From Ostreococcus lucimarinus (taxonomy: Eukaryota): 64,000 nt of DNA. The stretch is from assembly GCA_000092065.1 (NCBI GenBank), contig CP000584.1; one strand, 5' to 3'. Numbering within the stretch: the first letter of the stretch is position 1; each line of letters starts with the position of its first letter. Shown here in pieces: positions 47,588-64,000 of the stretch. The notes under the pieces were generated by a model that was given only the letters and a program-made list of their open reading frames with translations, ran no database searches and was not told the origin of the DNA. A program made the position numbers and the translations under genes.

Positions 47588-50500
47588 ATGAACTTTATTC
47601 GCCGTTTCGCCAACTCGAGTAATCCGACGCTCGACGCGCGCGACGCGACGCCACCATCGACGTCCGCGCCCGATGCGGCGGGCGCCCGCGTCGAGCTTCG
47701 ATCCGCCGAGACGATCGACGTCCCGCGCGTGATGAATTCGATGTTTGACGAGGGCAGGGACGGGGATTTGGTGTTTTCGTGGCAGTTGATGTCGGGCACC
47801 GCGAATGCGGGCGAAAGCAGCAGACGCGAAGCGACGAACGCGTTCTTCGACGCGTTTTCGGAGACGTACGCGCGGTGGGAACCGGCAAGGGCTAGGGGTG
47901 CAGATGAAGGGGACGATTCAGACGTCGGGTGCGCGGTCGCGCATCCTCGCGCGGTGACGCTCGCGGCGGTGGAGGACGCCGCGGGTCTGGGGGAACGGTT
48001 GGAGCGTGCGCTCACGGGCACTGTCGACGTCGGTGGAATCGAGCAGAGGATGGCGAGCATTGGTGTAGAAACCTTTCGAGCTCTGGAGATTATGTCGAGG
48101 TCGGCGCACAACAGAGTGTTCATGGAGCAGTGCGGGGCGAGTCGCGCGTTGGCAAACGCGTGCAAAACGTGCGCGCAGCGAATGTTGACGTTCAGCGCGG
48201 GGGCGGCGTCGGCTTCAAAAGAAAATTCAATCGAGGCTGGAGCGCTGTTGGAAGCGTTGCAGCACGTCGTGGAGCACGCGGTGAATGTGATTGATTCTTT
48301 CTTGGGCGACGCTTGGGCACTTCGTTCGTTCAACGAAAACGGCGCTTTGTTGGCTTTAATTGAAGTATTACGTGCGGAAAAAGTGGTCGTTGGTCGTGTC
48401 CACGGTGACGTCCGTAAGATGGCAATTTCAATAGAGCGAATGGCCATGCGCGCGATCGGGCGCGTCATGCACGGCGATGCCGCCGTACAAAAGAGCATAG
48501 CAGGAGCAGGAGGCTTGGATATTTTTTTTGAAGGCGTGTACCCAATCGAGGCTGACGTCAGCGTCGATATCGCGGGGTTCGAGACGTCGCTCATGAATCT
48601 CGAAATATCGCACACGCTACTTGCTGGTAATAAGTCCAACGTTGAGCGCGCTCAAGGCATTGGTTTGTTTACGCGAGTGGCCCGTCTGATGCGCGCGGCG
48701 AATGATTTGAGCGAAACACTCGTCTCAGATGAGGCGAGCACGTCAACGACGGAAGGCGAAGTCGCTGGTGTTCCATGGAGCGCGCAGCTCTTAGACGACT
48801 CCCTACGTTGTCATGAAGTCATCATCACGGACGGATATCCTAGTGAGGTGATTAAGAGACTGTTGAAATTCGTCCATCAAGACACCAGCGCCGCTGGCGG
48901 TTGGGCAAGTAAAGGAGCGAGGGAAATGATCTTAAAATGTCTCTTCGATTCGATTATTGAAGCGTGCTCGAGTTCAAAAGAGTCATTCAAGAGCGATTCA
49001 GAGTGTGTGAGATTTAGAGCACACGTGTTACGCTTTTTTAGTGACGCCATCGATATAGATCCCGCGGTCTTGCGCGTGATGCGTCAAGCACGCGCGTGGG
49101 ACATGTTGTTAGACGCCGATACGTACGGCGCAATTCCTTCAGTGGATCACAAAAATGAATATGAATCGGTGTCAGAGAGCACGACGTCGATCTTACGGCG
49201 TCGTGTACAAATTCAAACCGCGGCGTTACTTCTCAAAGCTTGTCAAATTGCCGCCGAATTGTCTGATTGTGTGGACGAATGCAACGTTCTGATCGGCACC
49301 ATCACGACGAGAGCAATACAGCCGTCGGTTGCGATTCGGCTTTGTCGCGTTCTAGAGCTTCTGCTAATCGATTCGTCGCACAGTGTGTGTAAAGCGTTAT
49401 CCGAGGTGGAAGCTCCAGGTCGACTTGCGGGGGCGTTGAACGCGCAATTGAAATGCTGGGGGTGTGACCAGGTAGCGTTCATCGGTGAAGTAGGAGCGAC
49501 AGCGAACTCCGCTGCTTTTGGTTCTACACTAAGCGCACTGAGGGCGTGTCTGAATGGTCCGGACGTGCTCGCGGCGTCGGCACTCAACAACGATGGTGTT
49601 TCTGACTTGATTTTCAACGAGCTTTTGTGGACAAACACGACTCGCGATTTAGCCATATCGGCCGTCGTATCTTTGGTGGGGTTGCGTCTGCACGCTCCAT
49701 CACCTCACGCCAGCGGCGCGCATCGTGAAGCATGGTCAAGCGTGGCGCGCCGATTCATCCAGGCCCTTCCCCGTGCACGAGGTACCGATATCACGTTGTT
49801 ATCGGCGATGCTTTCTGGGTTGCGTCAAATGTTGAACAATCCAAACGGCTCCGGAGACAGTCTGCGAGAATGGATATCGTCTGAAGACGGCGCAGAGTTT
49901 GTACAAATCGTTGCGCTTTGCGATGGTGACGCTGGTGAAGAGGTTGGGTTGGATGTCATAGCGACGTTACAGGCAGTGATCTCTAACTCGCATTCGTCAG
50001 CCTCAACGTTTGAGCGCTCAGTTGGATACGACACATTGATTGACGCCATACAGTGCGCTCGCGGCGCGGGTCCAGTATCCAAACCTCTGTTCGACGCCCT
50101 CATGAGCTTTGTTATTGATGACGACTATGGCACAGGGGGCGAGTCCAGCGGCATCGCTTTGCGGAACGCTAAGGCGCTACAAATGCTGCTCACTCTGATA
50201 GGAAACCTCGGCGCGTCTGACGAGTTAAAGGATGAGCTTCTCAAGGCTTTTAAGCAGATGTTGTCAGCGTCTGTGACGTCAAAAGCCACCGCAGATGCGG
50301 CTGGTGTTTTAGACTTCTGTCTTCAATGGTACGTGGATGCGAATCGCCGGCAAGCAGTACTCGAAGTCATCGCGCTTTGCAGCTCGTTTTCAATGTCCAC
50401 CAAGCACGTGCGTCAAATATTCCGTCTGTTGCAGGGCGACTCCATTTCAGCGGACGATCAATTGCAGCTGCTCCGGGTCCTACAGCACTCCGCAAAGCGA

Positions 50501-53500
50501 GTTGGTCCTTCTACATTTTTCGATTTCACTGGACCTGGTTGCGGGATTCACGTTAATAAACAACTAACTCTTCCAGTACGAAACGGCTACACCGTCTCGA
50601 TGTGGTTCCGCATCGAGCGGTTTCCGGAGTACGGCGGTCCAGTGCCGCTGTTTTCTTTACTATCGGGCGCTGGTAACGGCATTTTAGGAGAGTTACATGC
50701 GAACAAGCTCACGCTTGGCATTCGAGGATCCACGGGCACAGTTGATACCGCGTCGATCGACATCACAGTACGAGAGAACGAGTGGACTTTCTTAACGATT
50801 GTGCACCTTCCGGTGCGAATGTCGCAACCCCTGGTTCGTGTCTTCCTCGATGCTGGCATGGTTGGTCAGGCGAAGTTGCGTTACCCGATCAAGTCCACGG
50901 AAGCGATATCGTATTGTCGCATTGCTTCCGTGACGTTCGACGTTAGCCTAGAGAACGCGCACGTCAAGGTGTCACCGTTTTTCGGCCAACTGGGTTCGAC
51001 GCATATATTCGATGATGCCCTTTCGCAACCGGCGATTGCGATGATTCATGCACTCGGTGCAGATTATGTCGGACGTTTTAAGTCAACAGAATCGCAAACG
51101 GAAAGAATCCTTCAGGCAATCAGCGTGAACGCTGTCGAGGCTCGCGATACTCGCGAGTATCTCGCCGATCATCGACTGATTAGTATAAGCGCAGTCACCG
51201 TCGCCGGTCGAAGCGCTCAGTCGGAGGTGTACGACGTGAACGAATATGATTTGATCGGAGGGGCGAAAGTTTGCGTCACAAACTCAGTCAAAGACGTCGT
51301 GCACTGCCTCGGTGGTGTTCAAGTCGTTCTTCCAATCTTTTCTGACATCCTGCACGCCGCCGAGACGTCGAAACGGCGACAAATTGTTTGCGAAGGGGTT
51401 CATCTGCTCGTTGCTTTACTCGATGGAAGCAGACTCAATCAAGTTACGTTAACGTTGTGTGATGGGTACGCCTTGATTGCAAATCTTCTGCGAGAGAATG
51501 CAACGACTTTACTCTGTCCAGATTTACTCCCAGCACTCGACAGGCTTCGTCGTGCGGGCGGGATCGAGCACGAATCGGCATCGGCACGCATCGTCGTTGA
51601 TTTGCATCTTTGGTCCCTCGCCGATGACGCCACTCAAAAAGCGCATGGCGAGTACTTGTTGAGTTTGGCGACCAAACACTCGGATGGATTACGATTTCAT
51701 TTGCCAACAAGTGATCTCATCGATGCCCTCGATTTCACTCCAGGTGCGAGTGGAACGTCTCGTCGTCGAGTTTTGTTGGACGTGTTGAAGCAGCTTGTTA
51801 TCGACGCCCCGAATCAGATGATTGAGGAAACTGCGGAAACTATCGTTCACGTCATCGAAGAATGTGCCGACGAAGACACCGTTGGTGATGTTCTGCGCTG
51901 GCTAGTTAACTGCATGCAACCGGGTGAGGAAGTTCAGCCCACGCTCTACCAGGCTTTCACCAAGCTCGGCGGACCACTGCTGGCGCTATCGCCTTTGAGC
52001 AGGAGCTCCAGGCGAGTCCGCTCTTTCGCTCTTCTGTGGCTTGCAAACTTGATGCCTCCGCTCGAGGCTTCGAGCAAGAGTTCTGGGGGTGCCTCTCATA
52101 TATCTGCTGCTTTCGGCGCGGCCGCTGGTGCGCTGACTGCCACTCTCGGCGGCAAGTTCACGGCGACAGCGAGTCAGGATTTTGAAGTCGGCTTTTTCAC
52201 TGCAGTCGCGAACGCCCTCGAAAAATTCCCCCTCGATATCGCTGAATCCCGCTCGGCGCTCTTTGAGCTTTTACTTGGTGGCCAGGCGCTACCAGCGGAA
52301 AAAGTAGCCGAAAGGTTGAACAGGGAAAAGAATTCATCCGTGCGAGCTGCGGCTGGCAGGCTCTTTGCCAAAGTCACAGGCCACGGAAACGACGCGCAAA
52401 CCAAAGATAAGGAGTGTATTAGCGTTGGTGTACCCGGTATAGTCAATGCAGGCGCCGCTGGGGTGTTGCTTCGACTGATGAATTCAAGCGATAATGCGGA
52501 AATGCGTTTAAGCGTGCTCGAGCTGCTTCTCCAACTCGTGGAAGGTGCAAGCGTGAACGCACAGGCTGTGCTGGAGCAGCGAGGCTGGCAGACTTGGATC
52601 CTCCCCATCCTCAAAGACCACAGTGACGAAACGCAAAACGACGAGAAATCGATGGCTCGACGATTAATAACGGCACTTCTCTCGCACGCGGTGCTCAAGA
52701 CTGACGAAGGTCACCAGCACGTGTCGAACATGCTTGGCGTCATCGACATTCTCATCAAACGCGGCGTCTTAGCCGATGAGTCAGACTTAGCGCAGGAACT
52801 CCTTTCGGATTTGCTTGAGTGCATTCTCCCGACGCGAGCGTCTTCGTCCGAGCAAGACGAGTGGTCTGAAGTGCAAAATGTTGAGTCACCGATATGTCGT
52901 CGCAACCTTTCGAGACTTTTGCACATATTCGACTCAATCATTTCCGACACGTCCGCGACAGCGGCCGCGCTTGGAGTACCGAGTGCCTCCGATGCAAAGT
53001 CCAGCGTTAAGAAGATCTCTTGGAGATTTTACGACAACTTATGGAACCTATTAGATGCGATCTCTCCTCCTGGTCATCCCGTGGACGCGCCCGAAGAGAC
53101 GGCGGATGCCGTAAAATCCACAAACATGGCTCAAAAGCTGCACAGGCGAGCGAAGAGTATGATTCGTGATTTACCATTTTCGAGCAATAGCGAGAGCGAG
53201 TTTGATAGCGTCGAAGCCGTTGAGGCTCTGCGCAAGACTTGTCAGCGAATGGGATTCAGGTTGACCTTACTTTACGTGCGAGCGAGCGCGCTCGAAGAGT
53301 TGCAGACAGCACTGAATACGTGCATTGGACTTCTACCATCATTTTTGGCCCCAGTCTTGGTCGACAAGGATGGAAAAGCGATGGATACCGCGCCGCTAGG
53401 GAACAGAGCGCACTTGTTTATCGCGGATTTGATGCGTTACGTCGAGTTTGCTAAAAAGAGTGAAGATCCTGATGCGTCAACACGGTCGCAGCTCGTCGTA

Positions 53501-56500
53501 AATCTCGTTCGACTCGCATCTGAGGTTGGTAGACTTCTGCTTTCAGATTGCGCGAGCGTCGAGGAGTGCGCGCATTTGGACGGCCGTGATTTGATTTCTG
53601 AACAAAAGGTGGCAGCCGCCGCAGCGATCGAGGCCAAAGAGTCTAGGAAAGTCAAAGAGCTGCGCTCAAAAGTGAGTGAAAACTTTCTTTCCGAACGTAC
53701 GCGGCACGAGCAAAGGCAAGCGCAAGCCGAGACGGCACTGTTAGAGACTCATAAGTCTAAATTGGGTCCGGTAAGCGAGCGCGAGCGCGCACGTCGCGCG
53801 ATGCAGCGTCTGACGTTTGAAGAACGTTGCGATGTGCTCGCTCGTCGGTGGTCCGCGATGTTGCGCGACTTACAAGGTGAGCGAGGCGCGTGGGCGGCTG
53901 AAAACTGTGATGCAAAGGCGCACTGGAAACTCGACAAGTCTGAGGACTCATCGATGAGACGATCTCGTTTGAAGCGCGATTATAAGTTTGTGCAGTACGA
54001 AGACAATCAAAAAGGTGGCGAATCAACATTACAAAGCGATGTACAAGATATCCAAGCGGTTCGCCTCGTCGGCATGGGTCAAAAATGGAAGATGAATTCG
54101 GATAGCGACTACGTTGATGTCGATGATGTCGCAGACGAACTCGCAGAAAAACTCGCTGTGGACAAGGAGAACGCGATGCACAATAGGAGTAAAGTCGTGT
54201 TCAGCACGCCGGCATCACTCGTGACGCTCACGAGAACTGTACTGGGTAAGCTCAATGTCAGTCGTGATGCCGTTGTATTTGCCGCCGATCGTACGCATGA
54301 GAGTGCGAAAGATCATCGAAAACGTTTCTGGCGATGGAGCTTGAGTGAAATTGTCGAGGTACATCACATGCGATATCGCCTTCAGCACAAGGCTTTCGAG
54401 ATGCATTGCGCGGATCACACCAGTGCCTTTTTTGCGTTCGATACCAAGAAAACGGCGCGATACGCAGCTACGCGCGTGGCATCATCGGCGGGGGCGACTT
54501 TGATGAACAGACGTGCGAAAACTGAAGCAGCCGAACGCGCGAAGGAGCTCTGGCGCAGACAAAAACTGAGCACTTTCGATTATCTTATGGCCTTGAACGT
54601 CTTCGCCGGGCGAACGTTGCACGACTTGAGTCAATATCCCGTTTTCCCTTGGGTGTTGAAAGAATACGAAGCTGAAACAATAGATCTGGCCGACCCTTCG
54701 GTGTATCGAGATCTGAGAAAACCCGTTGGCGCGCTCAACGAAGAGCGTCTCAAGAACTTCGTTGAGAGATACAAGTCGCTGTTGGACGACCCTGACACGC
54801 CGCCTTTCCATTACGGCAGTCATTACTCATCGTCCCCGATCGTACTTTTCTTCTTGTTACGCCTGGAACCTTACACGAAACTCGCTCGAGCATTACAGGG
54901 CGACAGATTTGATCGAGCAGATCGCTTATTCCATTCGGTCGCGGAAACGTTCAAAGCTTGCGTAGAATCATCCGCTGATGTCAAGGAACTTATTCCAGAA
55001 TTTTACTACTCGTCCGAGTTCTTGACGAATACAAATGGACTAAAACTTGGGGTGCGACAGGACGGATCGACTATTGATGATGTAGTTCTCCCGCCTTGGG
55101 CCAAGGGTTCGAGGCACGAATTCACTCGAGTGATGCGGGAATCGCTAGAATCGGACTACGTAAGCGAAAATCTGCACCACTGGGTTGATTTGATTTTCGG
55201 GCACGCACAGCGAGGGGCCGCCGCGGTCGAGCGATGCAACGTGTTTTATTATCTCACATACGAAGGCGCCGTGGATATCGACACATTAGAAGATGATGAT
55301 CAACGGAACGCGATCGAGACACAAATCATCAACTTCGGTCAGACTCCCGCGCAAATTTTCAGGCGCGCGCACCCAGTTCGTCTGCCGCCCCAAGCGACAG
55401 AACACGTGGTTTCAATCTCTCCCGAATCGCTCAAACTCGCGACAGTTGTCTCATCCGAGTCTAACGGCCTACCGATGCGGGCGCAAGCGGTGGTGCACGC
55501 CACCGCGTACGATTCGCGTATTGCCGTGGTCACCGCTGGACGAATGGTTTCCATTCAGCGCTTACAACGTCCTGGAACGACATTCGGGCTGGGTGGCGTC
55601 GATCACTCAACCGCGTACGCGCTCGAACCAGAGACGACATCCCGGCTCATGCTCGAAATTGACGTCGACGCCGATTCGCTTGCGCATTCGCAATCCGTCA
55701 ATGTCGCTCTGAAAGGCAAAGTCTTGCTGAGTGTTGGCCATTGGGACAGAAGCATGCGTATTTTCGACATTGAGGAGGGGCGCGAGATGCAGCGTATCAG
55801 TGCACATCGAGATGTGACGACGTGTCTCGCGTTGTGCGAACTCGGGAGCTCGAGGAGCTGGGACGAGGCTTCGCACCAAATGGACCAAGTCATCGTGGTT
55901 ACGGGAAGTCGCGACACCACGCTCGCGATCTGGGAGATGGTGCTCCCTCAAGGAGGCTGGGGCTTTAGTAAAGGCACCAAAGTCCTGAGCGCCGAACCAA
56001 AAATGATCTGTTTCGGTCATGACGAAGCCATCACGTGCGTTGCTGTGAATTCATCGCTCAACTTGGTAGCGAGTGGCAGCATTGATGGCACCCTCATCCT
56101 GCACGACAGCCGGGATGGGCACATCGTTCGTGCATTGGAAAGCACCCCACCTGGGTGCATCCCATCGTCCATCGAATTGCTTCCAAAATCATCTCTCGTC
56201 GTGTGCGCGTGCGGCGTCGCCGGCGCGCTGTCCGTGCATGATGTCAACGGTGCCACACTCGCCAAATCGCTCAGTCGGCACGAAGCCTTTGACGCATTTT
56301 GCGTCACCCGCGACGAGCGACATATTCTCATCGGCAATCGTCGCGGAGACATCACTGTCCGCGCCGTGCATGATTTATCGATTCGTGCGCAAATCAACGT
56401 CGCCAACGCGGGCGTCGTCTCCATTTCACCCGTCGCGCGCGACGAGTGCCTCGTCGTCGGTCTTGCCGACGGTCGTGTGTGCCTCTGGGCGCCCGCGGCG

Positions 56501-56512
56501 CGTAGCCTTTAA
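47588..56512 (+). CDS. BEACH-domain protein (LYST/neurobeachin/LvsA-like): ARM-like N-region, ConA-like lectin domain, PH-BEACH, C-terminal WD40
   Basis: 2974 aa in a single exon. BEACH core 'STFDYLMALNVFAGRTLHDLSQYPVFPWVLKEYEAETIDL...PFHYGSHYSSSPIVLFFLLRLEPYT'. ConA-like 'NGYTVSMWFRIERFPEYGGPVPLFSLLS'. WD repeats 'GHWDRSMRIFD', 'TGSRDTTLAIWEM', 'SGSIDGTLILHD'. GC content of this gene is visibly lower than its surroundings. Confidence 0.9.
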   Translation: MNFIRRFANSSNPTLDARDATPPSTSAPDAAGARVELRSAETIDVPRVMNSMFDEGRDGDLVFSWQLMSGTANAGESSRREATNAFFDAFSETYARWEPARARGADEGDDSDVGCAVAHPRAVTLAAVEDAAGLGERLERALTGTVDVGGIEQRMASIGVETFRALEIMSRSAHNRVFMEQCGASRALANACKTCAQRMLTFSAGAASASKENSIEAGALLEALQHVVEHAVNVIDSFLGDAWALRSFNENGALLALIEVLRAEKVVVGRVHGDVRKMAISIERMAMRAIGRVMHGDAAVQKSIAGAGGLDIFFEGVYPIEADVSVDIAGFETSLMNLEISHTLLAGNKSNVERAQGIGLFTRVARLMRAANDLSETLVSDEASTSTTEGEVAGVPWSAQLLDDSLRCHEVIITDGYPSEVIKRLLKFVHQDTSAAGGWASKGAREMILKCLFDSIIEACSSSKESFKSDSECVRFRAHVLRFFSDAIDIDPAVLRVMRQARAWDMLLDADTYGAIPSVDHKNEYESVSESTTSILRRRVQIQTAALLLKACQIAAELSDCVDECNVLIGTITTRAIQPSVAIRLCRVLELLLIDSSHSVCKALSEVEAPGRLAGALNAQLKCWGCDQVAFIGEVGATANSAAFGSTLSALRACLNGPDVLAASALNNDGVSDLIFNELLWTNTTRDLAISAVVSLVGLRLHAPSPHASGAHREAWSSVARRFIQALPRARGTDITLLSAMLSGLRQMLNNPNGSGDSLREWISSEDGAEFVQIVALCDGDAGEEVGLDVIATLQAVISNSHSSASTFERSVGYDTLIDAIQCARGAGPVSKPLFDALMSFVIDDDYGTGGESSGIALRNAKALQMLLTLIGNLGASDELKDELLKAFKQMLSASVTSKATADAAGVLDFCLQWYVDANRRQAVLEVIALCSSFSMSTKHVRQIFRLLQGDSISADDQLQLLRVLQHSAKRVGPSTFFDFTGPGCGIHVNKQLTLPVRNGYTVSMWFRIERFPEYGGPVPLFSLLSGAGNGILGELHANKLTLGIRGSTGTVDTASIDITVRENEWTFLTIVHLPVRMSQPLVRVFLDAGMVGQAKLRYPIKSTEAISYCRIASVTFDVSLENAHVKVSPFFGQLGSTHIFDDALSQPAIAMIHALGADYVGRFKSTESQTERILQAISVNAVEARDTREYLADHRLISISAVTVAGRSAQSEVYDVNEYDLIGGAKVCVTNSVKDVVHCLGGVQVVLPIFSDILHAAETSKRRQIVCEGVHLLVALLDGSRLNQVTLTLCDGYALIANLLRENATTLLCPDLLPALDRLRRAGGIEHESASARIVVDLHLWSLADDATQKAHGEYLLSLATKHSDGLRFHLPTSDLIDALDFTPGASGTSRRRVLLDVLKQLVIDAPNQMIEETAETIVHVIEECADEDTVGDVLRWLVNCMQPGEEVQPTLYQAFTKLGGPLLALSPLSRSSRRVRSFALLWLANLMPPLEASSKSSGGASHISAAFGAAAGALTATLGGKFTATASQDFEVGFFTAVANALEKFPLDIAESRSALFELLLGGQALPAEKVAERLNREKNSSVRAAAGRLFAKVTGHGNDAQTKDKECISVGVPGIVNAGAAGVLLRLMNSSDNAEMRLSVLELLLQLVEGASVNAQAVLEQRGWQTWILPILKDHSDETQNDEKSMARRLITALLSHAVLKTDEGHQHVSNMLGVIDILIKRGVLADESDLAQELLSDLLECILPTRASSSEQDEWSEVQNVESPICRRNLSRLLHIFDSIISDTSATAAALGVPSASDAKSSVKKISWRFYDNLWNLLDAISPPGHPVDAPEETADAVKSTNMAQKLHRRAKSMIRDLPFSSNSESEFDSVEAVEALRKTCQRMGFRLTLLYVRASALEELQTALNTCIGLLPSFLAPVLVDKDGKAMDTAPLGNRAHLFIADLMRYVEFAKKSEDPDASTRSQLVVNLVRLASEVGRLLLSDCASVEECAHLDGRDLISEQKVAAAAAIEAKESRKVKELRSKVSENFLSERTRHEQRQAQAETALLETHKSKLGPVSERERARRAMQRLTFEERCDVLARRWSAMLRDLQGERGAWAAENCDAKAHWKLDKSEDSSMRRSRLKRDYKFVQYEDNQKGGESTLQSDVQDIQAVRLVGMGQKWKMNSDSDYVDVDDVADELAEKLAVDKENAMHNRSKVVFSTPASLVTLTRTVLGKLNVSRDAVVFAADRTHESAKDHRKRFWRWSLSEIVEVHHMRYRLQHKAFEMHCADHTSAFFAFDTKKTARYAATRVASSAGATLMNRRAKTEAAERAKELWRRQKLSTFDYLMALNVFAGRTLHDLSQYPVFPWVLKEYEAETIDLADPSVYRDLRKPVGALNEERLKNFVERYKSLLDDPDTPPFHYGSHYSSSPIVLFFLLRLEPYTKLARALQGDRFDRADRLFHSVAETFKACVESSADVKELIPEFYYSSEFLTNTNGLKLGVRQDGSTIDDVVLPPWAKGSRHEFTRVMRESLESDYVSENLHHWVDLIFGHAQRGAAAVERCNVFYYLTYEGAVDIDTLEDDDQRNAIETQIINFGQTPAQIFRRAHPVRLPPQATEHVVSISPESLKLATVVSSESNGLPMRAQAVVHATAYDSRIAVVTAGRMVSIQRLQRPGTTFGLGGVDHSTAYALEPETTSRLMLEIDVDADSLAHSQSVNVALKGKVLLSVGHWDRSMRIFDIEEGREMQRISAHRDVTTCLALCELGSSRSWDEASHQMDQVIVVTGSRDTTLAIWEMVLPQGGWGFSKGTKVLSAEPKMICFGHDEAITCVAVNSSLNLVASGSIDGTLILHDSRDGHIVRALESTPPGCIPSSIELLPKSSLVVCACGVAGALSVHDVNGATLAKSLSRHEAFDAFCVTRDERHILIGNRRGDITVRAVHDLSIRAQINVANAGVVSISPVARDECLVVGLADGRVCLWAPAARSL

Positions 56513-56667
56513 CTGCATTGTAAAATAACTAGCTCAATCCGTTGATCCATCGTCGTCCTCGCGCGACATCGCATCTCGCGCCAGCCGCGCCAGTGACTGG
56601 CCAGTTGCGGCGCAAGATGAACGCAATCCGAATCGCACGTCACTTGCGGCCGCATCGAACGCGCAGC

Positions 56668-57336
56668 ATGACGAAGGCGAAGAAAACCAAGCCCGCGCAC
56701 AAGTCGAACAAGAAGAAGAAGGTCGCCCCCGCGAACCGCGCGACGACGCGCGCGGCGCTGCAGAAAACGCCGACGAGGGGAAAGACGGTGCCGGCGAAGT
56801 TGACGGAGAAAAATATGACGCCCAAGGCGCTGAGGACGCCAAAGACGCCGAAGATGACGTCTGCGGGCGTGGCGAAGAAGCCTCGGTCGAGCACAAAGTC
56901 GGACGGGCGGCGAACGACGCCGAAGAAACCTAAAAATACGACGTCGTATATCATGAATCAGCGCAAGTACGGTGCGCAACCGCCGACGCCAAGACCGTTG
57001 AGTGGGATGAAGAGCCCGAGATTGGAAACGCTGGCGACGGCAACGATGAAACCGCCAGCAAGTGGATTAGATATGTTCGGAAGCATGCTCGGGGCGTTGT
57101 CGCCGGCGGCGTTAGAGAGGGTCGAGGTCGAAGGTGAGGAGTCGACGTCGGAAGTTATCAAACTGTGTTCGATTATTACCGAGCAAGCGAAGACGATTCA
57201 GCGATTGGAGTCGGAGGTTAATCACCTGCGGGCGCAGTTACAGGCTCGAGCGGTCGCGCCAGTCCCAACGTTGCGTCGTGTACCGTCAACGACATCTGAG
57301 TTGGCGTCGCGCATTGCCGGTTTGTTCAAGCGATGA
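56668..57336 (+). CDS. Lys/Pro/Thr-rich basic protein with (T/S)PKK-type motifs and C-terminal coiled coil, hypothetical
   Basis: 'MTKAKKTKPAHKSNKKKKVAP...TPKALRTPKTPKMTSAGVAKKPRSSTKSDGRRTTPKKPK' then the helix 'SEVIKLCSIITEQAKTIQRLESEVNHLRAQLQA'. ATG at 56668. TGTAA lies 13 nt after the stop. Confidence 0.4.
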   Translation: MTKAKKTKPAHKSNKKKKVAPANRATTRAALQKTPTRGKTVPAKLTEKNMTPKALRTPKTPKMTSAGVAKKPRSSTKSDGRRTTPKKPKNTTSYIMNQRKYGAQPPTPRPLSGMKSPRLETLATATMKPPASGLDMFGSMLGALSPAALERVEVEGEESTSEVIKLCSIITEQAKTIQRLESEVNHLRAQLQARAVAPVPTLRRVPSTTSELASRIAGLFKR

Positions 57337-57401
57337 ACGTCGCTAATGATTTGTAATCTTCACATTGTACTACGTGCCGCAAGTCGGTTTCTTATCGGTG
57401 C

Positions 57402-59909
57402 CTAAACCGTCATATACTTTCGTAGAATCGCGCGCGCTAAGCCGTTTGCGTTCGAAGAACGATAGATGAGGGATAAGTTGTACGCCGCTTCGCGACGCAA
57501 ATCGTCCGCCTCGGAGCTCACCGGCATCTCCAGACAACGCTCATAAATCGGACGAGCGAGGTGCGGAAAGCCGAGATGTTGCAGGCCTCGGGCCAAGTTG
57601 TACATCCCTTCTTGTGGGCTTGTCGTGTTCAACTCCGCGGTACGTTCGAGCAGAACGACAGCTCGAAGCGCCAGTGCGTGACGCTGCTGCTCGTTTGAAT
57701 TTCTCGTTGCCATGTGCAAAAGAGAAATCGCCGCACATAAATTCACCTCGTGATCGTTCGGCGCGATCGTGAGAGCCGTGAGGAAATCGTGCATTGCTAT
57801 AGACCACTTTTTGTTCCACGTGTGAACGTACCCAGATGCCATCAAAGGTAGCAGACGTTCGCGTGAGGCATCGTCGAGGCTACTCGCGACGAGACGCTTG
57901 GCGAGCTTTGATGTTCCAACGCTGAGCGCTCGAGGATAATCGATAGCCATGTGCATCAGCATGTTCCAAACCGTTACCGAATTCGGGAATACCTCAAGAA
58001 CACTACGACAGCTTGCCGCAGACTCTTGCAAATCGCCCATCATGTACGCCACGAGCGACTTTAGGTATCGTAGCGAAGCCGTCTGCTCTCGCGTCAGCAC
58101 GCTCCCCGCGGAGAATGAAAGCGCATGATTCACGATGGTTCCCGCTTCTTCGTGTCGACCGAGCCGAATAGCGACCTCGGCACCGCTTATAATATTAGCA
58201 AACACATCATCATCTGATATCCGAACGTTATCGTCCACGAAATCATCGCTCCCCTGTCCCGCGCGTTGGAGCTTGCGTTGCGATCTTTTTTCGCTCAAGT
58301 CTTCCAAGAGCTTCAACGCAGCTGGAATGATGACAGTCAGTTCGGCTTCGCTCAAGAGCTTTCTTTGTAAAGCAGTCACGCGCAATAAAATGCCATATTT
58401 CTGTACCTCGACGTCATCTAAATTTGACACAAGTGACCTCGCCCGCCTCAACGATTCTTCGTCGTCTTGAAAACGCGAAAGCGAATCGGCTAGAGATACG
58501 GCGATGAATACGTCGCTCGGGTGCTTGTCATGGAGCATGTCGTAAAATTCGACTACCGCGCGCAAGCCCCTCGATTGCTGAACGCATCGCTCTACGCGCT
58601 GCCACATATCGACATTGTCGTACTCGTCGAGCGCGATTAAGTGCATGAACACCTCTTCCGCCTTCGACGCCAACCCAACCTCCATCAGAGTTTTTCCGCA
58701 GTCAAAGTACAAGTCATCAAACTCAGTCACCTTGTGCCGCAAGAGCTCTTCAATGCGCTCCATGCCTTCTTCCGTTTGTCCTTCGTAAAGCAAACATTGA
58801 CCTTGTTTTACGGAAATGTCCAAAGGCAGCTGTCCAGAGTCGACGTGCTCTAAAATATTCGCGCGCGAACGCTCGACAATTTCTAGTACCTCGGAATACT
58901 TGCGGAACTCAATCTTCAACTCAATCAAAATGTTCACCACTGTGGCGTCGATGTGCTGTGGATACGCTTTCAGCATGTGCTCTAGAGCATGCTCAGCCTT
59001 ATCTCGCATATCAGCACTATAATACAACTTGGCGAGCAAGACCACGGCGTCACGCAAAATAGCGCCGTCGAGCGGCGGCAAATCGTCCTTCAGCACCCAC
59101 TCAAGTTGCTCAATCGCCTTTTTCGCATCTCCAAGCTCCGAATACAACGTTGCTTGATCCATTTTATTCTCGTAATTGTGCGGGTCAGACCTCGCCGCCT
59201 TTGCTAAGCAATGTATGGCGTAATCTTTGTTGTTCACGTTTACCGCCAGCGACGCCATGCGATACCACATCGACGGGTCCACCCCACGCTTCACCGCCGT
59301 CGCCAAAGAGTAACTATCCAACGCCTTTTCTAAATCGTTCGTTTCCTCGTACACCAGCGCCAATTGCTCGTACGGTTCGCTCGAATGCGGGATTTTCACA
59401 ATCGCCGCGTGCAACTTACTCACCGCCTCGGCGTATTCGCCCCGCGCGTACAATATGGTCGCATCACTCATTAAATCGTTTGCCTCCATCGCTTGCTTCG
59501 ACCGCGCCGACTTCTTCTGTCGCCCCTTTCGCCGCCGTTTCCTACTCTCGTTCACGCCGCCCATGCGCAAAAACGCCGCCATGGTCGGGTTTCGTCGCGC
59601 CGTCGCCTCGTCGTCGTCGTCGTCACGCGCCGTACCTCCACCGCGTCCTCCCGACCCATCGCTCGTGCCCGCCAGCGTCGACCGCTCGTACGCGACGACT
59701 TTCTCCGCCAGTCTTCCCTCGCGCAGGAGCTCGAGTCCATCGAACGCTCGACCGTCGCGTTCGTTGTCGGAATCGGTTTCTTCGTCTTCGTTCGATTCTG
59801 ATTCGGATGCGTCGTCGCCGGCGCGCGCGTGGGGCTTGCCGTGCACTCGCAGACGCCTCGCGCACGAGGGCTCGTCTACATCGTCGATCGCGCGCCCGGG
59901 GAGGGACAT
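57402..59909 (-). CDS. TFIIIC TPR-repeat subunit (GTF3C3/Tfc4-like)
   Basis: Acidic N-terminal region, then tetratricopeptide repeats throughout ('AEAVSKLHAAIVKIPHSSEPYEQLALVYEETNDLEKALDSYSLATAV...'). C-terminus 'AAYNLSLIYRSSNANGLARAILRKYMTV' vs yeast Tfc4 'AAYNSIIIYQQSGNVELADHLMEKYLSI'. ATG at 59909; the track start at 59957 is TTG. Confidence 0.75.
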   Translation of the reverse strand: MSLPGRAIDDVDEPSCARRLRVHGKPHARAGDDASESESNEDEETDSDNERDGRAFDGLELLREGRLAEKVVAYERSTLAGTSDGSGGRGGGTARDDDDDEATARRNPTMAAFLRMGGVNESRKRRRKGRQKKSARSKQAMEANDLMSDATILYARGEYAEAVSKLHAAIVKIPHSSEPYEQLALVYEETNDLEKALDSYSLATAVKRGVDPSMWYRMASLAVNVNNKDYAIHCLAKAARSDPHNYENKMDQATLYSELGDAKKAIEQLEWVLKDDLPPLDGAILRDAVVLLAKLYYSADMRDKAEHALEHMLKAYPQHIDATVVNILIELKIEFRKYSEVLEIVERSRANILEHVDSGQLPLDISVKQGQCLLYEGQTEEGMERIEELLRHKVTEFDDLYFDCGKTLMEVGLASKAEEVFMHLIALDEYDNVDMWQRVERCVQQSRGLRAVVEFYDMLHDKHPSDVFIAVSLADSLSRFQDDEESLRRARSLVSNLDDVEVQKYGILLRVTALQRKLLSEAELTVIIPAALKLLEDLSEKRSQRKLQRAGQGSDDFVDDNVRISDDDVFANIISGAEVAIRLGRHEEAGTIVNHALSFSAGSVLTREQTASLRYLKSLVAYMMGDLQESAASCRSVLEVFPNSVTVWNMLMHMAIDYPRALSVGTSKLAKRLVASSLDDASRERLLPLMASGYVHTWNKKWSIAMHDFLTALTIAPNDHEVNLCAAISLLHMATRNSNEQQRHALALRAVVLLERTAELNTTSPQEGMYNLARGLQHLGFPHLARPIYERCLEMPVSSEADDLRREAAYNLSLIYRSSNANGLARAILRKYMTV

Positions 59910-60090
59910 CGCGCGCGCGCGTCGCACGATGGCGTGCGACGGTTGTCTGTGCGCCAACTGAACTCGCTCGCGTCTCGCGCCTCGTTCGACTTGACTACTT
60001 TTGCTTTTTGTGTTACACGTGGTATTTCTAATGTGTGTGTTTGAATGTCGTTTGAATGTCGTTAATCGTGTTGTTCTGATCGTCGCGCGC

Positions 60091-63000
60091 TCATCGCGCG
60101 GCGTTCAGGTAAAGTCTGTATTGCTCGCGTCGGCGCTCTTCAATTTGTTCTTGACCGCGACGACGGTACTCTTTGAGATCGCGGCACCTGGGCACGGGGC
60201 AGTCGTCCTCCATGCATCCCTTAGAATGAATTTGCAACAGCGTCCACGTTTTACGGCAGAGCTGGCACCCGCCTGCTGATTTGACCGTGCAGCTCAAGGC
60301 GTGCTTGAGCAAGTGTTTGATTTTCGGGCAGTTGCTGTTTTCGCATCGTTCTTTGCGGCATTTGCACGCGTGGAGCAAGAGTTCCATGGTTCGCTCGATC
60401 TGCGCCGCGCGGTTCTCGCGCTCGGCTTGAGACAACGCCGTGCGATCTCCGGCGGTACGACCTTGTCGCATGAGGGGGTGCTGGTGACCAGTTCTGATGC
60501 GGCAGTTGTCGCAAATATCGAAATCGGGGCACGTCTCGCAGCGCCAACCCTTTCCGGGCTCGAGCTCGCGTGAACAAACGTTGCATGATGCGACGAATGC
60601 AGGCTCAGATGGATTGTTCAAGTGATACAGCACCATCATGGTCGTATGTTTGGCGCGACGAAGCGAGTCGAACTGGAAGTGATTGCCTTGGCACAAGGAC
60701 AGGAACGCTTGACGTGTGTCAAAGAATTCGCTCTCGAGCTTTTCCTCCTCGTCCTTCTGTTCCTTCGTCAGCGTGGGAATTTCCTCACACTTTTCGCACT
60801 CGAGCTTGCGGCCAGCGTAACGTTTTTCGTTCTCTGGCATCGCATCTTCAGTCTCCTTGCATTCTTCGCAAAGCACCAAGGGTGTGCCTTCCGTCGCGTA
60901 ATAGCGGTTGGCACCGGCGATGGTTCTGCGGCAGCACAAACATTGGTGCGCAAGATGGGCGAGCATGAAGTCGTTTCTCATGTTGCTGATCGTCGTCCCG
61001 AGCTTCTTCATTAGTTCTTTATTCAGTTCAGCGTCAGCGGCGATCGTGCCACTCTTTGCCTTGGCCGCCTTGCGCGCGCTGATCTTAACCGTGGACGACT
61101 TTGTCTTCGCCTCGATGTTCTTTGCCTCCTCGAGTTCCTTCATGATGGTCGGTATCCAATCTTCCGCAATGCCGGAGAAGTAATCACCATCGAAATACGG
61201 ATACTCAGTGGCGCATCGAATATCGTGATTTTGATTGCCGAGTCGGAATTCATCGTACACGTTCGAAGTTGAAATGACGATGCCATCCTTCTGCGCCGAG
61301 CGCAACATCTTGAGGTACCACTCACGAAGCTTGTCAGCCTTTGGCGTCTTTTGCACCTTGGGGTGACAGTACAGAATGTAATCGTCTCCTTGGAACGGCG
61401 GACACGCCCAAATAAAGCACGACGTGAAGCCGCGCTGTTTGACATAGTCCAGGTACGCAATCAGAATGTTGTGATAGACGTACGTGCGCAACGCGCAGTT
61501 TTCGCCCGTGGCCACGGTGACGTTGTCCGGTCGGAAGTACTTGACAGAGTCCAAATACGAGAGGTAAATTCTTCGCCGGTTCGGTTCAGGGCACTCGTCA
61601 TCATACTCTTGCACATAAATAGCCATCAAACACACATCGGTGGCCTCAAGCTTTTGGAACAGGAGGATGACGCGCGAACGGTAAGTAAAGTGCGCCGGAA
61701 TGCCCTGTTCTTTGAAGTGGGCGTAGTAGTGCGGCTTGGTGTCCATTTGTTTGAGTGTTTGAGACACAACACGAATGGTCAAGTTCTCAGCGGTCGGGAC
61801 GTTTTCTATGGGTACGCCCAACTGCTTCGCGCGCTCCACGCGTTCCGCCGAGAGCTTCGACGCGAGGCGTTCTTCCAAAAACGTCGACATCTTTGTCTTC
61901 GGTAACGAGCTCGCCGGCTGTTGTGAAGACGGACGTTCAGCAGTAACTTGACGTTCGTTCTTATCCAACTGCGATAAGATGCAGTTTGGACACGTGAATG
62001 GCGCTTCACCGCCTTCATTGCGTCTACCGTTGAAAAGAACGCAGAGTTGGTGATACCAATCCTCGCAGTAGTCGCATTGCACCCATGGCTCCTCGAGATC
62101 GTCGTCGTTCTTCTTCTTGATGAGCGTCGCTTTCGGAAACCGTTGACCCTCGACATCGACATACCCTTGGATGGCGTTGAAGCACGGGTTACACCACGCA
62201 TCTCTTCGAGTCTCGCCCCCGAGGCTAGGCATCTGGTGGAATACTTGTCCGCGCTTGATGCGACCGACGCAACTGTAGCAGTAAAGCGGCGGTGGTTCGA
62301 ACGTCAATCGTTCAACGCCGCATGCACGGCACGAACTTTCTGTCGCGTTGATCACCGCCCGCTCAGCTTCCTTCTGAAGCTGACGAGCGCTCGGTTGACC
62401 TTGACCTTGCACCTTTTCCTTGTCGGCGAGACGCAAGGCGGCGAGATGCGTACGGATTTCTTCCGGAGTGAAGCACTCCATTAACGACGTCCCTTCGCCA
62501 CCTGGCTTGCGATCCGTTTTCAAACCGCTCGTACCCTTCACCATGAGTTGACCACGATCGAGATCGTGATCGAGCTTCATTCTCTTGTTGCCGTGCGCCA
62601 TTTGCATTTGCGCCTGTTGACGCTGCTTGAGCATGGCGTTGCGCACGGGACCGCACACCGGACACCCAGCGTCCTTGCACGTCTGATGATGCTTCAACAA
62701 CTCACGCGACGCCAAACATCGAGGATAGTTGCACTGCGTCAGCGTACACTTCAACACGTGCTCCCACAACTGCTTCGCGACGTGACAGTGCGGCGTGTAG
62801 GGGCAGTGCCCGTGTCGCGCCTGACACTTGCTCGCGTGTCGAAGGAAGAGAAGCCATCGTTGCTGTTTCACGATGTACGCCTTTCGTAACTGCTCGTCAT
62901 TGATGTCTCGCCAATTAGCAACGACACCACCCCCACCACTACCCGGTTGCTGGCGCCCGCGCATCGCCGCCTGTTGCTGTTGGGCCATCTGTTGCTGTTG

Positions 63001-63450
63001 CGCGAGCTGCTTCGCCTGCGCCGCCTGCTGCGCCTTGGTGAGCTTTTTACCCTTCGGCGGCGCCTTAGCTCGTCCCTTGGGCGCCGCCGCCGTCGCTGCC
63101 TCAGGCATCATCGAACCCACACCCTGCGTCGGAATCATCGTCCCAGGTGGCACGCCGGCCATCATTTGCGAAGATCCTCCCGCGTATTGCGATCCTTGCG
63201 CCGCCGCCGCGCCGCGCAAAATCGGCGCCCCATTCGGTAACATACCGTTACCCCCCATCATCTGTCCCGCCGCGGGTTGCGCCATATTCCCCCCTAATCC
63301 CCCTGGGAACAACGCTCCCATCTGCTGACGCGAAGCCGCCGCAGCGCTCCCGCCTCCTCTTCCGCCCTGTTGCGCGCCTTGACGAGAAATCATGATGCGC
63401 GCGACGGCTTGAAGTCGCGCCTCCAACGTCGCCTTGTCGCAATACTCATC
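60091..63450 (-). CDS. CBP/p300-type histone acetyltransferase (plant HAC-like), main 3' exon: TAZ1, PHD, KAT11 HAT, ZZ, TAZ2
   Basis: TAZ1 'HASKCQARHGHCPYTPHCHVAKQLWEHVLKCT..CNYPRC'. PHD 'CDYCEDWYHQLCV'. HAT core 'RRIYLSYLDSVKYFRP...CFIWACPPFQGDDYILYCHP'. ZZ 'CNVCSRELEPGKGWRCETCPDFDICDNC'. TAZ2 'LLLHACKCRKERCENSNCPKIKHLLKHALSCT'. Exon begins after the acceptor TAG at 63451-63453. Confidence 0.9.
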   Translation of the reverse strand, partial: DEYCDKATLEARLQAVARIMISRQGAQQGGRGGGSAAAASRQQMGALFPGGLGGNMAQPAAGQMMGGNGMLPNGAPILRGAAAAQGSQYAGGSSQMMAGVPPGTMIPTQGVGSMMPEAATAAAPKGRAKAPPKGKKLTKAQQAAQAKQLAQQQQMAQQQQAAMRGRQQPGSGGGGVVANWRDINDEQLRKAYIVKQQRWLLFLRHASKCQARHGHCPYTPHCHVAKQLWEHVLKCTLTQCNYPRCLASRELLKHHQTCKDAGCPVCGPVRNAMLKQRQQAQMQMAHGNKRMKLDHDLDRGQLMVKGTSGLKTDRKPGGEGTSLMECFTPEEIRTHLAALRLADKEKVQGQGQPSARQLQKEAERAVINATESSCRACGVERLTFEPPPLYCYSCVGRIKRGQVFHQMPSLGGETRRDAWCNPCFNAIQGYVDVEGQRFPKATLIKKKNDDDLEEPWVQCDYCEDWYHQLCVLFNGRRNEGGEAPFTCPNCILSQLDKNERQVTAERPSSQQPASSLPKTKMSTFLEERLASKLSAERVERAKQLGVPIENVPTAENLTIRVVSQTLKQMDTKPHYYAHFKEQGIPAHFTYRSRVILLFQKLEATDVCLMAIYVQEYDDECPEPNRRRIYLSYLDSVKYFRPDNVTVATGENCALRTYVYHNILIAYLDYVKQRGFTSCFIWACPPFQGDDYILYCHPKVQKTPKADKLREWYLKMLRSAQKDGIVISTSNVYDEFRLGNQNHDIRCATEYPYFDGDYFSGIAEDWIPTIMKELEEAKNIEAKTKSSTVKISARKAAKAKSGTIAADAELNKELMKKLGTTISNMRNDFMLAHLAHQCLCCRRTIAGANRYYATEGTPLVLCEECKETEDAMPENEKRYAGRKLECEKCEEIPTLTKEQKDEEEKLESEFFDTRQAFLSLCQGNHFQFDSLRRAKHTTMMVLYHLNNPSEPAFVASCNVCSRELEPGKGWRCETCPDFDICDNCRIRTGHQHPLMRQGRTAGDRTALSQAERENRAAQIERTMELLLHACKCRKERCENSNCPKIKHLLKHALSCTVKSAGGCQLCRKTWTLLQIHSKGCMEDDCPVPRCRDLKEYRRRGQEQIEERRREQYRLYLNAAR

Positions 63451-63565
63451 CTACGATCGCAAAAACACCCCCACAATCCAACCGTCAGTCCTCGAACGTC
63501 ATCACCCGCGCGCGCGCGCGCCTCAACCGCCTCGTTCGTCGCGCGCGCCGATCGAAACCGCGCAC
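63451..63565 (-). other. HAC intron (115 nt): GTGCGCGGTTTCGATCGGCG...GAGGACTGACGG...CGTAG
   Basis: Joins '...VYRGARSK' to 'DEYCDKATLEARLQAVARIM', restoring KIX helix 3 (CBP '[16 protein letters not shown]'). Shares the 'TCGATCGGCG' block with the ISY1 intron 5' end. Confidence 0.7.
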
Positions 63566-63677
63566 CTTGCTCCGCGCTCCGCGATACACCGCCTCCTCCA
63601 ATCGCAGCACAAAGTCCGGTAGCTTGTGTTTCCACTCGTTCGTCAATTCCGGTTTCCTTTGTTTAAACACTCGCAAT
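63566..63677 (-). CDS. HAC exon encoding KIX-domain middle part (I)LRVFKQRKPELTNEWKHKLPDFVLRLEEAVYRGARSK
   Basis: Phase-consistent with its flanks (1-nt codon completion at the 5' end, phase 0 at the 3' end). Matches KIX '[19 protein letters not shown]'. Confidence 0.7.
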
Positions 63678-63833
63678 CTGCGCACCGTTCGCGCGTCCAC
63701 GCCGTCGTCAGTCGTCCCTTCGCCTGAGCGCGCGTTCGCGCGCGTCTTCGCGACCTAAGCCTCGTCCGCGAGATCCGCGTTCGCGCCTCCCCCCCCCGCG
63801 TCGCCTCGCGCGCCGTTCGCCTTCGCGACGCAC
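63678..63833 (-). other. HAC intron (156 nt): GTGCGTCGCG...GCTTAGGTCGCGAAGACGCGCGCGAACG...GACGACTGACGACGG...GTGCGCAG
   Basis: Donor follows '...QRKILIQH(AT)'. Shares 'CTTAGGT.G..GAAG..GCGCGAACG..ACGACTGACGACG' with the ISY1 intron. Confidence 0.65.
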
Positions 63834-64000
63834 ATGTGTTGAATCAGAATCTTCCTCTGCGGGATGTCGTCGTCCGATTGCCACGTGCGCCACGAGTGCT
63901 TCGCCCCCCCGCCGTCGCTCGCGCCGTTCGCGCCCGGCATTCGAACGCCCCGCGCCTTGTGCGGATTGACCTCGACCGACCGCGGTCGCGCGTGTGGGCA
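63834..64000 (-). CDS. HAC upstream exon encoding the KIX-domain start (…SWRTWQSDDDIPQRKILIQH), frame open to the window end (5' partial or ATG at 63940)
   Basis: 'GAKHSWRTWQSDDDIPQRKILIQH' matches KIX 'KGWHEHVTQDLRSHLVHKLVQAI'. No in-frame stop between 63940 and 64000. Confidence 0.6.

Follow-up and report, generated by a model that had tools for sequence, protein, structure and literature searches.

Gene structure at the locus

The end of a 64,000-nucleotide stretch of Ostreococcus lucimarinus CCE9901 DNA (contig CP000584.1, assembly GCA_000092065.1; this whole stretch is called the window) was analysed for a gene of the CBP/p300 histone acetyltransferase (HAT) family, positions 59800-64000 being read on the minus strand. 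Elsewhere in the window, four single-exon ORFs (open reading frames) agree exactly and over their full length with annotated CCE9901 proteins of one contig (XP_001417539.1, XP_001417538.1, XP_001417283.1 and XP_001417286.1), which assigns the window to this genome. An original prediction made from the sequence had proposed that a 1111-amino-acid open reading frame (ORF) continues upstream through two introns into exons coding for a KIX domain. The region was read as a single CBP/p300-family lysine acetyltransferase gene of the plant HAC type, located on the minus strand and having three exons, with the domain order KIX-TAZ1-PHD-HAT-ZZ-TAZ2. The probability of this reading was put at about 95%, and the domains and the complementary DNA (cDNA) support the predicted gene type, its two introns and the upstream KIX exons. 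The parts of the gene are as follows.

63941 to 64000, minus strand: 3' part of the 5' untranslated region (UTR); cDNA contigs L008 and L009 reach 177 nucleotides (nt) past 64000
63834 to 63940, minus strand: coding part of exon 1, ATG at 63940; residues 1-35 and 2 nt of the Ile36 codon
63678 to 63833, minus strand: intron 1, 156 nt, phase 2, GTGCGT...GACGACTGACGAC...GCAG; missing from the cDNA
63566 to 63677, minus strand: exon 2, 112 nt, residues 36-73
63451 to 63565, minus strand: intron 2, 115 nt, phase 0, GTGCGC...GAGGACTGACGG...GTAG; missing from the cDNA
60091 to 63450, minus strand: coding part of exon 3, residues 74-1192 and the TGA stop at 60093-60091
59991 to 60090, minus strand: 3' UTR, 100 nt, ending in the poly(A) site; the cDNA matches the genome as far as 59991, after which L008 continues with poly(A)

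The joining of 63940-63834, 63677-63566 and 63450-60091 gave 3579 nt, a multiple of three, with one terminal stop and a product of 1192 amino acids, and it reproduced the predicted junction peptides IQH-I-LRV and ARSK-DEY. The large ORF (60091-63426) has 1111 amino acids and its first codon on the minus strand is TTG, which agrees with the predicted non-ATG start. Intron 1 holds an in-frame TAG, while the length of intron 2 is not a multiple of three and its retention would shift the frame. Exon 1 codes for an unstructured N-terminus and for the first half of KIX helix 1.

The splice signals were judged against the published consensus of O. lucimarinus (5' site GTGCGTG, branch point GACTGACG), with ACTGAC present in 41% of the predicted introns (PMC2483917). 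Intron 1 has the 5' site GTGCGTC and 27 nt from its branch motif GACGACTGACGAC to the 3' end, whereas these are GTGCGCG and 37 nt from GAGGACTGACGG in intron 2. By 5' site and branch point both introns are canonical Ostreococcus spliceosomal introns of the non-chromosome-2 type, in accordance with the GTGCG(Y)/ACTGAC introns of the prediction, and both are removed in the cDNA. The pattern GTGCGY...ACTGAC...YAG occurred 9 times in the window against 3.1 +/- 1.6 in shuffles (shuffle maximum 8); this count is suggestive only and was not the basis of the judgement.

Transcript evidence and the ends of the gene

An exact look-up revealed that the 1192-amino-acid product is already public as P0391, encoded without interruption by a single ORF in each of two contigs (3957 and 3919 nt) from the independent runs SRR28369050 and SRR28369223. 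Contigs L008 and L009 align with the window as three blocks (64000-63834, 63677-63566 and 63450-59991) with the junctions CAACACAT|ATTGCGAG and GGAGCAAG|GATGAGTA. Over 3739 nt, L009 differs from the three-exon model at 1 position and L008 at 4, a match which is far beyond chance. The 5' end of L008 is TGGTATCAACGCAGAGTACGGGG, which we take to be the SMART template-switch oligo, and its 3' end is a poly(A) tail; both contigs are cDNAs. Transcript continuity across 63451-63833, on which the prediction had been made to depend, was found in both of them, and their junctions lie exactly where it had placed them; all its coordinates for ORFs, exons and introns hold.

The deposited annotation gives a different model, in which the gene is a single exon with its coding sequence starting at Met93 (63393) and the upstream ORFs are an untranslated leader or due to chance. 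This NCBI model (XP_001417549.1 / ABO95842.1, O. lucimarinus CCE9901, 1100 amino acids) spans 63393-60091 on the minus strand and matches residues 93-1192 of the spliced product exactly; its Met93 is the first ATG of the large ORF. Missing from it are the first two exons and 19 codons at the beginning of exon 3, together 92 residues, and with them KIX helices 1 and 2 and the greater part of helix 3. Many metagenome gene calls likewise start within exon 3 (1064, 1076, 1056 and 1050 amino acids), and most metagenome-derived entries of the protein's 90%-identity cluster are truncated, the representative having 1064 amino acids. However, the full-length, capped cDNA joins the three exons in frame with its first ATG at 63940, which brings the Met93-start model close to refutation. 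The upstream exons also code for a domain conserved from Bathycoccus to land plants, and the truncated calls stem from intron-unaware callers or from early ab initio annotation. The single-exon model was thus considered very unlikely and the three-exon gene was retained. A database search with the N-terminal 165 amino acids returned just 26 fragmentary matches, none of them a full-length spliced protein from this species, such proteins being masked by the word index and the 90% clustering.

The 5' end was located with the TARA metagenome contig L001, which is 99.8% identical to window 50102-64000 and prolongs the sequence past the window (window 64000 corresponds to L001 9286). Both cDNAs share a 5' start at L001 position 9109, 237 nt ahead of the ATG and about 177 nt past the window end. 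The cDNA 5' UTR of about 237 nt is without any ATG, and therefore the ATG at 63940 is the first of the messenger RNA (mRNA). In O. tauri the protein begins at the equivalent methionine, as do the transcript ORFs of O. mediterraneus. A divergent gene of the CTP_transf_1 (CDP-diacylglycerol synthase) family comes next, with its start 294 nt upstream of the ATG of the HAT gene.

A continuation of the coding sequence past the window through more upstream exons, so that the window truncates the 5' end, was also weighed. The frame is open from 63940 to 64000, as predicted, and stays open over 96 codons in the near-identical L001. No in-frame ATG occurs among these 96 codons, however, and the adaptor-bearing cDNA end lies 237 nt upstream of the ATG with no other ATG in between. 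The divergent neighbour begins 57 nt past the HAT transcription start, and the O. tauri and O. mediterraneus proteins begin at the equivalent Met. An upstream coding extension was therefore regarded as hardly conceivable. Because of the cDNA 5' end, the ATG-free upstream sequence, the divergent neighbour and the start positions in the congeners, the coding sequence is complete in the window and only UTR goes past 64000. The prediction had left two alternatives for the 5' end; the start at the ATG at 63940 stood and the truncation by the window did not, and the statement that the gene runs off the window was too strong, as it holds for about 177 nt of 5' UTR and for no coding sequence.

Conservation of the locus in relatives

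The locus was compared with the genomic loci of an O. tauri-like lineage (L002), an O. mediterraneus-like lineage (L006), a third Ostreococcus lineage (L005) and Bathycoccus (L007), the intron positions being obtained by mapping annotated or transcript-derived N-termini onto the genomic contigs. Both introns were found at the same codon positions and in the same phases in L002, L006 and L005. The exons of the window are 71-87% identical in DNA to those of the three Ostreococcus loci without indels, while the introns vary in length and are 56-66% identical, near the shuffled baseline of 52-56%. The O. tauri protein XP_022838808.1 and complete O. mediterraneus ORFs from MMETSP align gap-free over both junctions, and the proteins of these two species begin about 20 residues ahead of the motif WRTWQSD. 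The O. mediterraneus proteins come from MMETSP transcriptomes and therefore give independent mRNA evidence in a congener.

In Bathycoccus (L007 270-757) intron 1 lies at the same codon position (224 nt, GTGAGT...AACTGAC...CAG) and intron 2 is absent, so intron 2 was either gained in Ostreococcus or lost in Bathycoccus. In the third Ostreococcus lineage, intron 2 (L005 3175-3312) has 138 nt, a multiple of three, and no stop codon; intron-unaware callers read through it and produce the 1228-amino-acid P0004, in which 46 residues are inserted between KIX helices 2 and 3. A spliced form of 1205 amino acids is also recorded (P0170).

Midway through intron 1, a short element is kept in all four Ostreococcus lineages, the remaining intron being diverged. 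It is located at window 63752-63764 (minus strand), L002 about 5548-5562, L006 about 205-219 and L005 about 2982-2996. Two lineages have the sequence GGGGTTTAGGGCTTG, and the window has GAGGCTTAGGTCGCG; the plant-type telomere repeat TTTAGGG lies within the element in two lineages, where it is telo-box-like. The window copy provides the in-frame TAG, at which an intron-retaining product would end. A scan of the whole window for telomere-repeat-like motifs gave 5 matches against 1.55 expected, a number reached in 3 of 100 shuffles, and thus no clear enrichment. Intron 1 also carries a run of nine G at window 63789-63797 (minus strand).

Domain content and catalytic family

The domains of the spliced product were assigned with Pfam and by comparison with solved structures. 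Their coordinates are given below.

63382 to 63450, minus strand: KIX helix 3, residues 74-96
62653 to 62865, minus strand: TAZ1 zinc finger, residues 269-339; Pfam zf-TAZ; CBP TAZ1 structures with E about 5e-8
61981 to 62103, minus strand: PHD finger, residues 523-563; Pfam PHD 5.5e-7; aligned with the p300 core
61174 to 61803, minus strand: HAT (KAT11), best Pfam stretch, residues 623-832; HAT_KAT11 4.5e-33; p300 8hag E 1.9e-102
60478 to 60594, minus strand: ZZ zinc finger, residues 1026-1064; Pfam ZZ 4.9e-7; CBP ZZ 1tot 7e-6
60166 to 60396, minus strand: TAZ2 zinc finger, residues about 1092-1168; second zf-TAZ stretch; p300 TAZ2 structures with E about 5e-17

The HAT domain is of the KAT11 type, with 115 bits in Pfam HAT_KAT11 against a cut-off of 22.5. 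The zf-TAZ model matched in two stretches (6.6e-27), and the HAT domain is flanked by TAZ1 on one side and by ZZ and TAZ2 on the other. Against solved structures, the region from RING/PHD to TAZ2 gave p300 8hag_K (E 1.9e-102) and CBP 8hal_K (8e-99). The alignment revealed SYLDSV, LRT, IWACPP and EWY as identical to p300, at residues 704, 727, 753 and 783 of the spliced protein. We take these motifs to surround p300 D1399, R1410/T1411, W1436 and W1466/Y1467, which are catalytic or contact Lys-CoA (numbering of Liu et al. 2008). By alignment, the catalytic and Lys-CoA-contacting residues appear conserved. The spliced protein gave no Pfam match to the bromodomain (PF00439) at E <= 1, which therefore places it in the plant HAC branch and leaves its membership of the family unaffected.

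The KIX domain

The entire KIX domain covers residues about 16-96 and is spread over all three exons. Helix 1 crosses the junction of exons 1 and 2, helix 2 lies wholly in exon 2, and helix 3 (DEYCDKATLEARLQAVARIM) opens exon 3. The prediction that the 1111-amino-acid ORF lacks a KIX domain was thus right for helices 1 and 2; helix 3, the last third of the domain, stands at the exon start of the large ORF.

For the three KIX families of one Pfam clan considered here (KIX PF02172, KIX_2 PF16987 and Med15_N PF09606), this sequence alone matched KIX_2 with 23.9-24.8 bits (E 2e-5 to 3.9e-5), slightly below the cut-off of 25.6 bits, and the Pfam scan gave no match of the protein to the metazoan KIX model PF02172. 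Chlorophyte and land-plant HACs have an N-terminal region clearly homologous to this one (up to 107 bits), and KIX_2 is matched at E <= 0.01 by 33 of the 35 segments of this kind (best E 5.2e-10). When a profile built from the homologous segments was compared with the PDB, the seven best matches were all KIX domains. These seven comprise the KIX of Arabidopsis Med15a (2.8e-4), that of fungal Med15/Gal11 in two cases (0.0019 and 0.0036) and the CBP KIX (0.002-0.0026), with the p300 KIX lower in the list (E 0.023). The hhalign comparison with the mouse CBP KIX gave E 5.5e-5 and a probability of 66%. The structure predicted for the O. tauri segment appears as a three-helix bundle superposable on solved KIX structures.

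A generic three-helix bundle which is no true KIX homologue would share this predicted fold; in view of the profile matches this alternative was considered quite unlikely. With all the evidence combined the KIX assignment is sound. The likeness to the CBP KIX seen in the original prediction holds for the domain, while its class, as judged by these comparisons, is the plant/fungal KIX_2 (Med15/HAC1), to which it is closer than to the metazoan CBP KIX.

The residues Tyr658 and Lys662 of the CBP KIX contact the phospho-Ser133 of CREB. The protein studied here has Gln and Arg at these positions in the hhalign register, extended by eye, and phospho-KID-type recognition is therefore not implied.

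Two points weigh against the overall interpretation. The predicted structure is that of the O. tauri segment, in which 5 of 86 residues are different from the window sequence, and it is from the family that we infer acetyltransferase activity and KIX ligand binding.

Proposed mechanism

The gene structure, the splicing, the mRNA start and end and the domain content were observed as described above. Transcription begins about 177 nt past the window end and gives an mRNA with a 5' UTR of about 237 nt, three exons and a 3' UTR of 100 nt, from which the two short spliceosomal introns with their strong genus-typical signals (5' GTGCGY, branch ACTGAC) are spliced out. Translation from the ATG at 63940 then yields the 1192-amino-acid protein with the order KIX, TAZ1, PHD, HAT, ZZ, TAZ2. 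By analogy with the family, the protein would be recruited by its KIX and TAZ domains, the KIX three-helix bundle and the two TAZ fingers docking the activation domains of DNA-bound transcription factors. The HAT domain may then acetylate histone tails and other proteins at the target promoters.

Neighbouring genes and other observations

In the stretch L001 9052-9346, just past window position 64000, only 57 nt separate the HAT transcription start from the start codon of the divergent CTP_transf_1 gene, so the two genes must either have a very short bidirectional promoter in common or produce transcripts which overlap head to head. The downstream neighbour on the same strand (57402-59957, minus strand) is a gene for a TPR-repeat protein of about 814-835 amino acids. 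The poly(A) site of the HAT gene at 59991 is only about 80 nt upstream of the first candidate ATG of the TPR gene (59909), a short spacing which illustrates extreme genome compaction.

Plus-strand ORFs inside 60091-64000 (<=184 amino acids) were treated as antisense artefacts opposite the coding strand of a GC-rich gene (GC, guanine plus cytosine). An Rfam scan of 59500-64000 gave no match. The GC content of the window ranges from 53% to 65% per 4-kb block, with its minimum around 48-56 kb.

Evolution and significance

An N-terminal KIX domain of the KIX_2 type fused to TAZ1-PHD-HAT-ZZ-TAZ2 is present in Ostreococcus and Bathycoccus, which are the most reduced green algae, and in Prasinococcus, other chlorophytes and land plants. 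In diatoms the same fusion occurs together with a bromodomain, and the diatom relatives P0115-P0120 carry PF00439. The KIX domain was thus probably part of the ancestral CBP/p300 protein, before the divergence of plants and animals. This reading contradicts a published survey, which states that the CBP-family lysine acetyltransferases of photosynthetic eukaryotes lack KIX (PMC5499015). Truncated models such as XP_001417549.1 may help to explain why surveys missed the domain.

The gene itself is ordinary and already known, its O. tauri orthologue is annotated in full, and KIX in plant HACs has already been described (PMC5668377; PMC13505635). The result is a minor gene-model correction, by which XP_001417549.1 gains 92 N-terminal residues including the KIX docking domain; its practical value is small and no concept is changed by it. 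Intron-unaware calls on picoeukaryote contigs in metagenome catalogues routinely lose such short 5' exons. The corrected model shows that a complete KIX-TAZ-HAT coactivator is kept even in the most compact genomes of free-living eukaryotes.

Comparison with known proteins

The closest named protein is the O. tauri orthologue XP_022838808.1 / CEF97646.1 ('Zinc finger, PHD-finger', 1182 amino acids). Its identity is 86%, and it is collinear from end to end, with the KIX N-terminus and the start position included; the first 20 residues of the two proteins are different. In the O. tauri-like locus the two introns occupy identical positions, and the genes next to it are also the same. Its introns have 142 and 137 nt against 156 and 115 nt here, their sequences are diverged, and the 5' site of its intron 1 is GTACGT.

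Human p300/CBP share the RING/PHD-HAT-ZZ-TAZ2 core, aligned with E 1.9e-102, and have TAZ1 and KIX in the same order. Compared with them, the algal protein is without a bromodomain match, no NCBD/IBiD (Creb_binding) domain was seen in it, and its KIX, of the KIX_2 class, is only about 19-20% identical to the CBP KIX.

The land-plant proteins HAC1, HAC5 and HAC12 (for example Arabidopsis AT1G79000) show the same order of KIX_2-type KIX, TAZ1, PHD, HAT, ZZ and TAZ2, likewise with no bromodomain. The identity to land-plant HACs (HAC1/HAC12) is 46-48% over about 67% of the protein, and the algal KIX region aligns with residues about 35-125 of the plant HACs. Owing to a much shorter Q-rich linker between KIX and TAZ1, the algal protein has about 500-600 residues fewer than these. 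The algal gene is single-copy, with one match in the contigs examined, whereas plants have 4-5 HAC paralogues (PMC5499015). In Arabidopsis, the KIX domain of HAC1 contributes to the binding of DELLA activation regions (PMC13505635).

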